Assembly (NCBI GenBank): GCA_964531735.1
Contig: CAZHGD010000005.1
Span: 4,095 to 68,094, forward strand
DNA from: an uncultured Fimbriimonadaceae bacterium
GTDB lineage: Bacteria; Armatimonadota; UBA10988
Length of the DNA: 64,000 nucleotides
Reading direction: 5' to 3'
Part shown: one piece after another, positions 26,559 to 46,351 of the stretch
Position numbering within the stretch: position 1 is the stretch's first letter
Layout: every line of letters begins with the position of its first letter
Position numbers and translations under genes: made by a program
Notes under the pieces: generated by a model
What the model saw: the letters and a program-made list of their open reading frames with translations, nothing else
Told to the model about the DNA's origin: nothing
Databases searched by the model: none

Positions 26559-27681
26559 ATGGTTGACGCCCTGAAGCAACGGTACGACGCCCTGACCCAC
26601 CGCACCGCGGAAATGGGAGGGTATCTTTGACCTGGCTTCACGCCGGGCCCGGATCGACGAACTGAATGAGCGCACGCTGGCGCCCGGGTTCTGGGATGAC
26701 CAGCAGGCGGCCCAGGACACGCTGAAGGCGTTGGCCAAGGACAAGGCCTACCTCGAGCCTTGGGATGAGCTGGCCGGCCACCTCGACGACGTGGCGGTGA
26801 TGATTGAGTTGGCCGAGGAGGACGCCGAGGAGGCGACCGAAGCCGAGGCCGAGGCCGAGTTGACCGTCGCCGAGCAGTTGCTGGCGCAACTCGAAGTCGC
26901 GGCCATGCTGGGCGGCCCCTACGACGACCACGACGCGATTGTGGAGCTCTCCGCCGGCGCCGGCGGCAACGACGCCTGTGACTGGGCCGAGATGCTGTTC
27001 CGCATGTACACGCGCTGGGCCGAGCGCCAGCGGTTCAAGCCCGAGGTCATCCAGGTCTCGGAGGGTGAGGAAGCCGGCCTACGCTCGGCCACGCTACGCA
27101 TCTCGGGCCGCAACGCCTACGGCCTGTTGCGCGGCGAAGGCGGGGTCCATCGGCTGGTGCGCATCAGCCCGTTCGACTCGAACGCCCGGCGGCACACCTC
27201 GTTTGCCGGCGTCACCGTCATGCCCGATGTGGCCGACGACATCAACATCGAGATCGACGAGGCCTACCTGCGCGTGGACACCTACCGCAGCAGCGGCGCC
27301 GGTGGCCAGCATGTCAACAAGACCGACAGCGCGGTGCGGTTGACGTACCAGCCGCCGGAGCTGGACCGGCCGCTGGTGGTCTCGTGCCAGAACGAGCGCA
27401 GCCAGCACAAGAACAAGTCGACCGCGATGAGCGTGCTCAAGGCGAAGCTCTACGAGATCATGCAGCGCCAGCAAGCCGAGCACCTGTCCGACCTGCGAGG
27501 CAAGGTGGAGGAGTTCGCCTGGGGCAACCAGATCCGCAACTACGTGCTGCACCCCTACCGCATGGTCAAGGACTTGCGCACCGAGGTGGAGACCGGTGAC
27601 ACCGACGGCGTCCTCGACGGTGACCTCGACCGGTTCATCGAGAGCTACCTGCGCCAGACCGCCGGGCAGCACGCGGACTGA
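26559..27681 (+). CDS. prfB: peptide chain release factor 2, requiring a programmed +1 ribosomal frameshift: join(26559..26627, 26629..27681)
   Basis: Frame 0 reads MVDALKQRYDALTHRTAEMGGYL then TGA. The site is GGGAGGG-TAT-CTT-TGA-C at 26615-26631, the canonical RF2 autoregulatory shift site with an SD-like element 3 nt upstream. The +1 frame continues DLASRRARIDELNERTL... through SPFDSNARRHTSFA and GGQHVNKTDSAVRL. Confidence 0.92.
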
Positions 27682-27710
27682 ACCTGAGGCGGCGGCGCCG
27701 GATCGACCGC

Positions 27711-27776
27711 AATTGGGGACAGCATCAATTGGGGACAGTATACTTAACTGCGTGCAGTCAAGTATACTGTCCCCAA
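27711..27776. repeat. conserved palindromic element, copy A: a partial direct repeat AATTGGGGACAGCATC, then TTGGGGACAGTATACTTAA - CTGCGTGCAG - TCAAGTATACTGTCCCCAA
   Basis: 19-nt arms with one mismatch. It is AT-rich (GTATAC core) in 70% GC DNA. It lies between convergent prfB and DUF1559 paralog 2. Copy B at 29701-29753 has the same arm sequence. Confidence 0.5.
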
Positions 27777-27828
27777 GTGCGGTCGCCAATCGCCGCTCTG
27801 GCGCCGCTCTGGCCGGAGCGCGTCGGGC

Positions 27829-28539
27829 TCAGTCGGCGGCTGACGTCCAGTTGGCGTAGGCCATCACGCGGGCCGTGGTGGTGCCCGCGGTGCCGGCGGC
27901 GATGCGCTGCCACTTGACGTGGCCATCCACAAAGGCGATGTTCATGCCTTCGTTGTGCGGGAAGACCAGGTTCCGGGTCTGGTCCCAGGTGTACCCGCAG
28001 CACATGCGGCAGTTCATCTCCAACACCGTGATGGTGCCGGCCGGGTCGCCGATGCTGGCGTCCTTCTGCGGCGTCTCGGGCCGCGCTGCGATCGGCCCTT
28101 GGTTGGCCTGGGCCAGCACGGCGCCGGCGGCGTCCAGCCGGTTGGTGTTGACCCCGTAGCCGGGCGGCGTCGTGCCGGCGCCACGCCCGGTGGTGCCAGG
28201 CTCACAGCTCGCCGCCGGCAAGCCGTAGTTGGTTGACGGACACGAGAAGATCTGGATGTTCTTGATGTACGGGCTGGCCACTTCGCGCCAGTTGGTGTTG
28301 GCGCGCGGGTCTGGCGACACGGTACAGCCCTGCCACCACGCCTTCATGAAGGTCTGGTCGTAGTCGCTCACGTACTGCAGAATGGCCAGCGCCATCTGTT
28401 TCTCGTTGGACTGGCAGCTCGACTGCCGCGCCTTCTCGCGCGCTTTGGCAAACACGGGGAACAGGATGGCTGCCAGAATCGCGATAATGGCGATGACGAC
28501 CAGCAGCTCGATCAGCGTGAAACCGCGTCGGTTTCTCAT
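27829..28539 (-). CDS. DUF1559 / H-X9-DG prepilin-like protein (paralog 2)
   Basis: [48 protein letters not shown] and [21 protein letters not shown] lies 6 nt upstream of ATG 28539. A TTGAAA-N17-TACAAC promoter-like pair sits at 28600-28628 on the minus strand. Confidence 0.85.
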
Positions 28540-28820
28540 CACCGTCCTCCTCTGGGCTCACCGGACCGAGGTCCGGCCGATCGTCCCTGCGCTGCCACGG
28601 TTGTAACCCATCGGCGACCACGTTTCAACACAAATCGGAAGGGCGCCTCCCGACCGCGCCGGGTCCGGCAACGCCGTCGGCACCCGGCGCCCGGTGTCGG
28701 AGCGGCTGCCGGGGGCCTGGCCGACCCGCAGCGTGCCTGACCCGGACCAGACGATCGTGGCCGGAGCGCCGACGCCAAGACGTCAGTCGAGTACCATAGC
28801 CCAGACGTGAGCAAACTCCC

Positions 28821-29720
28821 ATGGGCCTCGTCTACGCCGCCGTCCTGCCGCACGGACCGGGTGTCATCGCCGAGCTGGCCGCCGACCCCGCGGTCATGGC
28901 CGCGACGCGCGACGCCATGACCGTGGCCGGTGGGCGGTTCGCCGCGGCACGGCCGGACGTGGTCCTGCTGCTCGATCCCCACTCGGTGCACGAGGCGCAG
29001 GGCGTCGCCCTGGCCGAGGTCCGCGAAGGCCGGCCGACGGCCTTCCCGAACCTGGGCTCAAGGCACATCGCCGTCTGCACGGCCAGCCGCGCCGGCGGTA
29101 CCATGGGGGGTGCCGGTGGCGGCTCGGTCACGGACACCTACGCTGGCGCTCCGGGCTTGGCCGCGGAGATTCTGGCGGCGGGGGCCGGCCTGCCGGTGGT
29201 CGCCGAGCCCGGCGGCGACGGCGGCCTGCGCCTCGCCGGCGGCGCACTCATCCCCCTTTGGTTCACGCTTCGGATGCTACCCGAGCCACGTCCGCCGCTG
29301 CTGGTGATCGACGCCGGTCCGGCGGTGGCGCGGACCGACCTGTGGCGCTTCGGTGCTGTGCTGACCGAGTGGGCGGAGCGGTCAGGTCAGCGCGTGGCCC
29401 TGCTGGCCTCGGCCGATCAGGGCCATACCCACGACCCGGGGCACGAGCGCTTCGGCTACTCGCCCGCCGCCGCCGAGCACGACCGCTGGTACTGCGCAGC
29501 CATCCGCGACCAACGCCTCGACCGCCTGCTGTCGGTGGCCGACGACCTGCTCCGCGGCTCGTGGTCGGATTCGCTTTGGCAGACGCTGATCCTCGCCGGC
29601 GCGGTCGAGGCGGCGGGCCTGCACGGCGATCTGCTGTCCTACGCCGTGCCGACCTACTACGGCCTGGCGGTGGCGGTGTATGACGACGCTGAGTGGTCCA
29701 ATCGGGGACAGTATACTTAA
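28821..29720 (+). CDS. LigB/DODA-type (class III extradiol dioxygenase-like) family protein. The assignment is tentative.
   Basis: VLPHGPGV and LLLDPHSVHE resemble the His-containing motifs of Extradiol_dioxy proteins. The last six codons and the TAA stop lie inside palindromic element copy B. Confidence 0.55.
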   Translation: MGLVYAAVLPHGPGVIAELAADPAVMAATRDAMTVAGGRFAAARPDVVLLLDPHSVHEAQGVALAEVREGRPTAFPNLGSRHIAVCTASRAGGTMGGAGGGSVTDTYAGAPGLAAEILAAGAGLPVVAEPGGDGGLRLAGGALIPLWFTLRMLPEPRPPLLVIDAGPAVARTDLWRFGAVLTEWAERSGQRVALLASADQGHTHDPGHERFGYSPAAAEHDRWYCAAIRDQRLDRLLSVADDLLRGSWSDSLWQTLILAGAVEAAGLHGDLLSYAVPTYYGLAVAVYDDAEWSNRGQYT

Positions 29721-29753
29721 CCGCGCCGGCAGTTACGTATACTGTCCCCAATC
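29701..29753. repeat. conserved palindromic element, copy B: ATCGGGGACAGTATACTTAA - CCGCGCCGGCAG - TTACGTATACTGTCCCCAATC
   Basis: The same GGGGACAGTATAC(T/G)TAA arms as copy A with a different loop. The left arm supplies the C-terminal codons and stop of the LigB-like CDS. It lies about 65 bp downstream of the DUF1559 paralog 3 stop codon. Confidence 0.5.
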
Positions 29754-29816
29754 AACTCGCGGCTTCGCCGGTACTCAGGCCAGGCCGGCGTGTGGTCAGC
29801 AACCAGCCTGGTGCGT

Positions 29817-30503
<687 letters not shown>

Positions 30504-32896: not shown

Positions 32897-33550
32897 TCAG
32901 TAGGGCAGCCAGAGCACGGTGCTGAAGTCGGCCTGCTGGGTGGTCAGCTTGGTGATCTCGAACCACTTGGCATGGCCGTCCACGAACACCGAGTTGGCGC
33001 CGTTGTTGTGCCGCGGGTTGGCGGTGTCGGTGTACAGCGTGCCGCTGGTAGGCACTGCCGCACCGTCGGGCCAGGCCCAGTCATCGGCCCAGTGGCCCAG
33101 CGTGGCATTGTTGCCGGTCAGCGGCGGGAAGCGCACCCACGGATCGTTGTTGAGCGCGCGGCCCTTGCCGTTGTCGACCACCATGATGCACTGGGCCGGC
33201 ACGGTCACCGTGGCCAAGGCCAGCGTGCCGGCGTTGAACACGCCGGTGTAGTTCACGCCATAGGTGGTCAGGTTGCTCGACGGGCAGGTGTAGACCTGGT
33301 TGTTCTTGACATACGGCTGGGCCACCACCAGCACCCCGAGGTTCGAGACGTTGTACACCGGGAACAGCTCGTCGTAGTCCTGCAGGTACTGGAGCAGACT
33401 CAGGCCGATCTGCTTGACGTTGCTGGAGCAACTGGATTGCCGGGCCTTCTCGCGCGCTTTGGCGAACACCGGAAACAGAATTGCGGCCAGAATCGCAATG
33501 ATGGCGATCACCACCAGCAGCTCGATCAGAGTGAAGGCATGTCTGCGCAT
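32897..33550 (-). CDS. DUF1559 / H-X9-DG prepilin-like protein (paralog 4)
   Basis: [47 protein letters not shown] and [16 protein letters not shown]. The ATG at 33550 was verified. The upstream Trp/Arg-rich extension is an artefact. Confidence 0.85.
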
Positions 33551-46254: not shown

Positions 46255-46351
46255 GCGCTGAGGAGGCCGTAGGCCGTCTCGAAGCGCGGCGATGGGGCGC
46301 AGCCCACCTGGCCGCGCTTCGAGACGGGGCCTGCCGGCCCCTCCTCAGCGC
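46255..46351 (+). promoter_or_regulatory. ~97-nt near-perfect palindrome. Outer arms are 12 bp (GCGCTGAGGAGG / CCTCCTCAGCGC), inner arms 17 bp (CCGTCTCGAAGCGCGGC / GCCGCGCTTCGAGACGG), and the central spacer is 20 nt.
   Basis: Read directly. It lies in the divergent esterase/GRE intergenic region, about 75 nt upstream of the GRE start codon and downstream of a TATAGT box at 46182. Confidence 0.4.

Follow-up and report, generated by a model that had tools for sequence, protein, structure and literature searches.

Two near-perfect palindromes of about 54 nt were identified in a 64-kb stretch of contig CAZHGD010000005.1 from an uncultured Fimbriimonadaceae bacterium (Armatimonadota), and their nature and origin are the subject of this analysis. 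The whole stretch of 64,000 nucleotides is referred to as the window. Copy A is located at 27726-27779 and copy B at 29699-29754, and both occupy gaps between convergent genes. The gap containing copy A lies between prfB, encoding release factor 2 (26560-27681, plus strand), and a DUF1559/prepilin-type gene (27829-28539, minus strand). Copy B is found where a LigB-like gene (28821-29720, plus strand) converges with another DUF1559/prepilin-type gene (29817-30503, minus strand). The stop codons of the two DUF1559 genes, at 27829 and 29817, are 50 nt from copy A and about 65 nt from copy B, respectively, and the spacing given in an original prediction for this region was correct. On the prfB side, an additional partial arm of copy A begins 28 nt past the stop codon.

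Copy A reads CAATTGGGGACAGTATACTTAACTGC-GT-GCAGTCAAGTATACTGTCCCCAAGTG and copy B reads CAATCGGGGACAGTATACTTAACCGC-GCCG-GCAGTTACGTATACTGTCCCCAATCA. The repeat finder returned arms of 26 nt for copy A (27726-27751 and 27754-27779, 92% complementary) and of 24 nt for copy B (29701-29724 and 29729-29752, 88% complementary), and the CAAT and AATCA flanks extend the span of copy B to 29699-29754. The left arm of copy A (27726-27751, plus strand) is composed of CAATT, GGGGACAGTATAC and TTAACTGC, and the right arm (27754-27779, minus strand), which follows after 2 nt, reads CACTT, GGGGACAGTATAC and TTGACTGC in reverse complement. In copy B, the left arm (29699-29724, plus strand) is composed of CAATC, GGGGACAGTATAC and TTAACCGC and overlaps the 3' end of the LigB-like gene, and the right arm (29729-29754, minus strand) reads TGATT, GGGGACAGTATAC and GTAACTGC in reverse complement. 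The arms are laid out as a lineage-specific outer flank (CAATT here), GGGGACAG, TATAC and an inner segment of the TTAAC type. The partial arm outside copy A, called the outer half copy, is the 16-nt sequence CAATTGGGGACAGCAT (27710-27725, plus strand). It consists of CAATT, GGGGACAG and CAT, repeats 27726-27741 in tandem with one mismatch and stops after core position 8, which confirms the extra half copy described at this site.

The 13-mer GGGGACAGTATAC occurred four times in the 64 kb, always within the four arms. All four GTATAC and all five GGGGACAG of the window also fell inside the elements, the latter being present in each arm and in the half copy. When up to two mismatches to GGGGACAGTATAC were allowed, 0.45 matches were expected, and four were reached in none of 100 shuffles. 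The G+C content of the window is 70.5%, therefore the arms are AT-rich for this genome. The prediction of two conserved AT-rich palindromes was thereby confirmed, with some corrections to its details. The 19-nt arm said to be shared by the copies was exact in two arms, while the right arm of copy A (TTGAC) and the left arm of copy B (TCGGGG) had one mismatch each. The loops had been described as differing, with arm conservation set against loop divergence, which was overstated. Copies A and B aligned end to end (87% over 53 nt, with one 2-nt indel), and the differences were mostly central, but the centres are homologous. The consensus of the four arms was itself palindromic, indicating that nearly the whole element is made up of two abutted arms of about 27 nt.

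As single-stranded DNA (ssDNA), copy A folded at -20.4 kcal/mol (z -8.6) and copy B at -16.8 and -20.3 kcal/mol on the two strands, and the z-scores of the hairpins ranged from -7.3 to -8.6 across both copies. A 6-bp inverted repeat, CGACCG (27704-27709) and CGGTCG (27780-27785), encloses copy A; it was reported by the repeat finder and forms an outer stem in an 82-nt fold. The alignment of the two copies showed that this repeat is absent at copy B. It possibly represents a small palindrome that was present before copy A was inserted, or it arose by chance.

The distribution of the arms was analyzed by scanning one genome per species, 596 Gb in total, for GGGGACAGTATACNT, and at least 120 loci (L001-L120) were detected. 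About 4,400 single matches are expected by chance in 596 Gb according to a uniform-composition estimate, therefore single matches mean little alone. However, among the 172 arms of the 120 loci listed, 93 had an inverted partner arm within 1.5 kb that matched 19-28 of 28 positions. The viral contigs contained 43 exact matches, none of which had a partner arm or a partner score above 18 of 28. These are thus regarded as chance matches, and there was no sign of phage carriage. The hosts of paired arms included Gamma-, Alpha- and Zetaproteobacteria, Desulfuromonadales, Bacteriovoracaceae, Myxococcota, Nitrospiraceae, Elusimicrobia, Campylobacterota, Ca. Hatepunaea and a Pirellulales metagenome-assembled genome (MAG). 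Gene-less head-to-head arm pairs like those of the window were found at about 50 of the 120 loci listed and in at least eight phyla. The AT-rich core was kept in other hosts with a G+C content of 68-73% (L016, L060, L076, L084 and L120).

At some of these loci the arms enclosed a gene. In L084, L080 and L047, inverted arms with GGGGACAGTATAC located 710-830 bp apart enclosed an open reading frame (ORF) of about 230 aa, frameshifted in L047, and the same held for L032 and L049, where one arm had diverged. The encoded protein belongs to Pfam Y1_Tnp (PF01797; E 1e-8 to 3e-14) and displays an HUH motif (NHVH), a Y---NP motif (YVENNP) and a WSSA serine motif. NHVH, RYVENNP and WSSA were invariant in both protein alignments (A2 and A3), as in the motif definition of TnpAY1 subclass 2.1. 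The best match in the PDB was E. coli TnpAREP in complex with a REP hairpin (4ER8), both by sequence (E 1.5e-4) and by predicted fold (Foldseek E 3.4e-6, TM 0.69 normalized to the target). The match to NCBIfam REP_Tyr_transpos (NF047646) reached 66 bits, under its cutoff of 80 bits. The AlphaFold model contained extra C-terminal helices at residues 141-215 (pLDDT about 53-82). Elsewhere, a Y1 transposase gene lies between such arms, and the palindromes are indeed sequence-specific repeats of the kind proposed in the original prediction, which had named REP (repetitive extragenic palindromic)-like repeats and miniature inverted-repeat transposable elements (MITEs).

RAYT-like genes that lie between long terminal inverted repeats (TIRs) instead of REPs have been named TIRYT genes, and the corresponding elements TIRtrons (Di Nocera et al., 2013; PMC3733652). 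Their TIRs carry the motif GGGGWSAS, and the TIR repeat families are moderately abundant and occur as singles, dimers and clusters (PMC3733652). In a later classification, 20 of 26 TIRYTs were assigned to TnpAY1 subclass 2.1, with the consensus GGGG[AT][CG]A[CG] (Quentin et al., 2018; PMC6006769). Subclass 2.1 ranks second in size among the subclasses, is patchily distributed and has a C-terminal extension resembling a helix-turn-helix (HTH) domain (Bac_DnaA_C, HTH_23 or HTH_28) (PMC6006769). The elements of the window resemble TIRtron ends in several respects. Their GGGGACAG fits both published motifs, and these arms surround a RAYT-like Y1 gene in other genomes as an inverted pair, one arm about 40 nt before the ATG and the other 15-50 nt past the stop codon. 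The window contains two head-to-head dimers and one half copy, and dimers and arrays were found at related loci; the taxonomic spread is likewise wide and patchy. The window differs in carrying GGGGACAGTATAC as its core variant and CAATT as the outer flank, in a genome of 70% G+C with planctomycete-type genes, and in showing only gene-less dimers.

The family was also sampled by protein similarity. A relative of the transposase was encoded by 570 of 600 pattern-matched metagenome stretches, the best 80 of which were kept. Most of these best 80 displayed a core of the type GG[GT]GACA[CG]nnTAC about 40 nt before the ATG and an inverted partner 15-50 nt past the stop codon. The cores varied and included GGGGACAC[AC]ATAC, GGGGACAGTATAC, GGTGACAGT[GT][CT]AC and others. 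The family consensus is approximately GG[GT]GACA[CG]nnTAC followed by a TTAATT-like stretch, and the variant present in the window is among the commoner ones. TIR core and protein divergence were weakly correlated (Spearman rho -0.34), in pairs that are not independent and with a pattern that common descent also gives. Among 8000 candidates scored, at least 7557 protein clusters belonged to the TIRYT-like family at E <= 1e-20, and most of them were labeled 'transposase'. On plasmids, only distant 'transposase' matches were obtained (29-44% identity), none of which covered 80% of the protein. TIRYT-type elements are very common yet neglected, and the hairpin dimers and the half-copy break described below provide concrete substrates for biochemistry.

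Two side observations concern hairpins of other forms. In a minority of about five of 68 TIRtrons, the gene was bordered on one side or on both by hairpin ends that are self-complementary, such as GGGGACAGTTACTAGTAACTGTCCCC, an arrangement similar to REPtrons; loci with such ends flanking a TIRYT gene are L139, L159, L165 and L187. A small hairpin inside the single arm, pairing the outer AATT with the inner AATT, was rejected since the pairing was not kept across lineages.

The distances between paired arms formed a series, with offsets of 22-24, 43-60, 75-99, 141-155, 265-271 and 710-822 nt. The 274-bp element of L052 (Pirellulales) retains the first 37 codons of the TIRYT gene. Together, the series and this remnant display the pattern expected from internal deletion of a TIRtron, with the copies of the window in the shortest class. 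A fold-back origin may also apply to the shortest class.

The left arm of copy B encodes the end of the LigB-like gene, as had been predicted. Positions 29700-29720 read AAT CGG GGA CAG TAT ACT TAA on the plus strand and specify the last six codons, NRGQYT, and the TAA stop codon, so that the C-terminus of the protein is VAVYDDAEWS-NRGQYT*. In an alignment of LigB homologues, the closest of which was 69% identical, the conserved domain stopped at VAVY[ED] and was followed by unrelated tails of 0-17 aa. This agrees with the proposal that the element replaced the 3' end of the gene; judged from the sequence alignment, the final six codons were overwritten by copy B together with the stop codon. 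The element thus accounts for the NRGQYT ending of the LigB-like protein. RGQYT(F)* tails also terminate long ORFs of 470, 251 and 511 aa in the unrelated genomes of L021 (at about 4325), L027 and L089, respectively. In a survey of raw ORFs, which is indicative only, other long ORFs stopped within the element and many hairpins were faced by 3' ends from both sides. Insertion at extreme 3' ends therefore appears to be repeatedly tolerated.

Taken together, these comparisons demonstrated that the arms are TIRtron ends and likewise established the deletion-size series, the broad distribution and the donation of a stop codon by copy B. We consider it very probable that both palindromes are gene-less, head-to-head TIR pairs of a TIRtron, representing a new variant core and a new host lineage of a described family. 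A full TIRtron of the window type would comprise a TIRYT gene bracketed by CAATTGGGGACAGTATACTTAAC, with a length of about 0.75-0.85 kb, and loss of the gene would leave two abutted arms that fold into an ssDNA hairpin of 20-24 bp. By analogy with TnpAREP acting on REP hairpins and with the TnpA proteins of IS608 and ISDra2, a TIRYT provided in trans would act on such hairpins in ssDNA by cutting and rejoining them, without target-site duplication. E. coli TnpAREP processes folded single-stranded REPs in vitro (PMC8266576). No direct repeat indicative of a target-site duplication was present at the borders, which read CGACCG before and CGGTCG after copy A, and GTGGTC before and ACTCGC after copy B. 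Each copy would have arrived independently in a convergent gap, a kind of site at which insertions are tolerated. Copy B would have entered the LigB-like gene within its unconserved 3' tail and now supplies the last six codons and the stop of this gene. The 87% likeness of copies A and B, together with their unrelated flanks, points to independent and probably old insertions. The decay of the arms (88-92% pairing), the 13% divergence between the copies and the lack of a TIRYT gene in the 64 kb likewise suggest old relics. The biology of the window is ordinary, being that of decaying selfish-DNA relics in convergent gaps, and the half-copy break is the one lead that might have weight beyond annotation. 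For annotation, both elements should be labeled as TIRtron-derived TIR dimers, not as terminators or pilin-gene regulators.

Several points weigh against this interpretation. Neither tblastn nor a profile search run at maximum sensitivity detected a TIRYT gene in the 64-kb window. No relative was found in whose genome either site is empty, and the window proteins looked up were the sole members of their 90%-identity clusters; mobility at both sites is consequently something that we infer. The invariance of the 13-mer across phyla was rejected as evidence, since the protein-sampled loci showed many core variants and the apparent 'invariance' in L001-L120 was produced by the search string of an exact-string search. 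As for the HTH domain of subclass 2.1, Pfam gave only Y1_Tnp in four proteins even at E up to 5, no separate HTH search being made. TnpAREP and IS608 are the models for the proposed single-strand mechanism, and both mobilization in trans and the cut-and-join chemistry are put forward by that analogy. In the literature searched, TIRYTs were named only in PMC3733652 and PMC6006769, neither of which tests the enzyme biochemically. The same literature did not contain the exact 13-mer GGGGACAGTATAC.

The resemblance to REPs deserves closer comparison. Like REP/REPIN-RAYT systems (TnpAREP 4ER8; Pseudomonas REPINs), the elements are short extragenic hairpins of inverted units located in convergent or co-directional gaps, here between convergent genes, and the cognate single-domain HUH/Y1 enzyme has the same fold, is encoded by a gene flanked by its own repeats and has TnpAREP as its closest relative, with the sub-threshold match to REP_Tyr_transpos (66 bits) pointing in the same direction. 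However, canonical REPs or REPINs that depend on a standard RAYT of the GTAG type (TnpAREP subclasses 2.2 or 2.5) would carry a GT[AG]G tag 0-2 nt 5' of the hairpin foot, and this tag was absent; the flanks were CAATT or CAATC before GGGG and AAGTG or AATCA after CCCC. The unit of the window is a TIR arm that is not itself palindromic, the transposase enclosed by such arms falls below the NCBIfam RAYT cutoff (80 bits) and has an extra C-terminal helical region, and the reported TIR copy number per genome is moderate, not in the hundreds. The arms moreover fit the TIRYT motif GGGGWSAS, which is kept apart from REPs (PMC3733652; PMC6006769). The missing GTAG tag largely refutes a canonical REP/REPIN origin, which we regard as very unlikely. 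The hairpins might instead be RNA elements, acting in both directions at 3' ends to stop or stabilize the prfB/DUF1559 and LigB/DUF1559 transcripts. Both copies lie in convergent gaps at 28-65 nt from stop codons, the hairpins with their flanks fold as RNA at -35 to -53 kcal/mol (z -6.4 to -8.4), and an action of REPs on mRNA stability and termination is reported (PMC3733652). No U-tract was present on either strand, however, the tails being AAGTGCGG/AATTGATG and AATCAACT/GATTGGAC, and no terminator was called, in line with the original argument against a generic terminator. Rfam yielded only chance, sub-threshold matches to miRNA hairpins, and the need for a stem alone would leave the AT-rich core shared with the transposase ends unexplained. 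A primary RNA role is therefore unlikely, and any role at RNA 3' ends is at best secondary and co-opted; any effect of the hairpins on mRNA 3' ends is a matter that we infer.

Among other mobile elements, the IS200/IS605 family (IS608, ISDra2) and its gene-less palindromic derivatives share with the elements described here the Y1 HUH fold (Foldseek E about 1e-4) and the lack of target-site duplication, and by analogy single-strand hairpins are likely substrates in both. IS200/IS605 ends, in contrast, are two different subterminal hairpins and not inverted repeats of each other, the transposases are shorter, at about 130-150 aa, and whole elements are typically present at high copy number. Classical MITEs mobilized by a DDE transposase (e.g., Correia-type) are also short, gene-less and often intergenic, have TIRs and sometimes donate gene ends, and the two copies with their inverted ends lie within 2 kb, which would suit either such MITEs or a local segmental duplication. 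Neither copy has a target-site duplication, though, and the only gene found between such arms encodes a Y1 HUH tyrosine transposase. As for duplication, the only similarity between the flanks of copies A and B lay in conserved parts of the DUF1559 genes. Both possibilities are thus highly improbable. The proximity of both copies to DUF1559 genes, 50-65 nt downstream, raised the question whether the palindromes are operators or other regulatory sites of these prepilin-like genes, and an association with them had been suggested originally. The window encodes four DUF1559/prepilin-type paralogues, all on the minus strand (1049-1615, 27829-28539, 29817-30503 and 32897-33550), but nothing similar to the element was present downstream of two of them. 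The spacers between hairpin and DUF1559 stop codon showed no relation between copies A and B, therefore the hairpins were not copied along with the DUF1559 genes, and a segmental duplication of gene plus hairpin was rejected. The element-adjacent pair of genes was alike only in the conserved N-terminal and HNxG...DGH regions. The sites are located at 3' ends, not at promoters, and the wide host range, covering many non-planctomycete lineages at loci compared by the element alone, speaks against a tie to this planctomycete-type gene family. An operator function is hardly credible on these grounds, and the suggested association was not supported: the feature common to both sites is the gap between convergent genes, and the adjacency of DUF1559 genes is incidental.

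The outer half copy of copy A, CAATTGGGGACAG, proved to be a family-wide trait in its commonest form. Extra outer copies, consisting of the outer flank and the first eight core bases, were found within 100 nt outward of 27 of 157 TIR arms, vs. none of 139 controls. The break fell exactly after core position 8 in 14 of 35 half copies, from seven loci including the window, and at core position 9 in two, from two further loci. The published 8-nt motif and the unit that is repeated here coincide, and this unit may mark the nick site or represent a binding module amplified by slippage. A more specific possibility, which we consider doubtful but worth stating, is that the half copies are footprints of the TIRYT reaction, in which ssDNA would be nicked or joined between GGGGACAG and TATAC, with GGGGWSAS as a separate binding or guide unit that is copied again at each event. 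If true, this would be the first testable prediction of a cleavage site for a very large transposase family, with copy A as a one-unit example. No description of the fixed half-copy break point or of the recurrent RGQYT* gene tails was found in the literature searched. The most extreme half-copy arrays were observed in L084, the TIRtron of a Qipengyuania MAG, at 1720-1835 and 2569-2700, with several TTCCGGGGACAG units on the left and at least eight tandem CTGTCCCCGAAAC units to the right of the right TIR.

A consensus scan also returned sigma-70-like -35/-10 pairs formed by element sequence at 27716-27744 (plus strand) and 27789-27761 (minus strand). In the plus-strand pair, the -35 box GGGACA is provided by the outer half copy and the -10 box TATACT by the arm. 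The left TIR is located about 40 nt before the transposase ATG in TIRtrons, thus TATACT may be the -10 box of the transposase gene.

The four DUF1559 paralogues of the window were almost identical in their N-terminal 30 or so residues and divergent in their bodies. The prfB gene contains a programmed +1 frameshift site, GGGAGGG TAT CTT TGA C, at 26616-26632, downstream of the ATG at 26560, and its main frame, encoding the PCRF and RF-1 domains, extends to 27681. An unrelated inverted repeat with 24-nt arms, CCGTCTCGAAGCGCGGCGATGGGG and CCACCTGGCCGCGCTTCGAGACGG, that are 88% complementary and separated by a 6-nt gap is located at 46274-46327.

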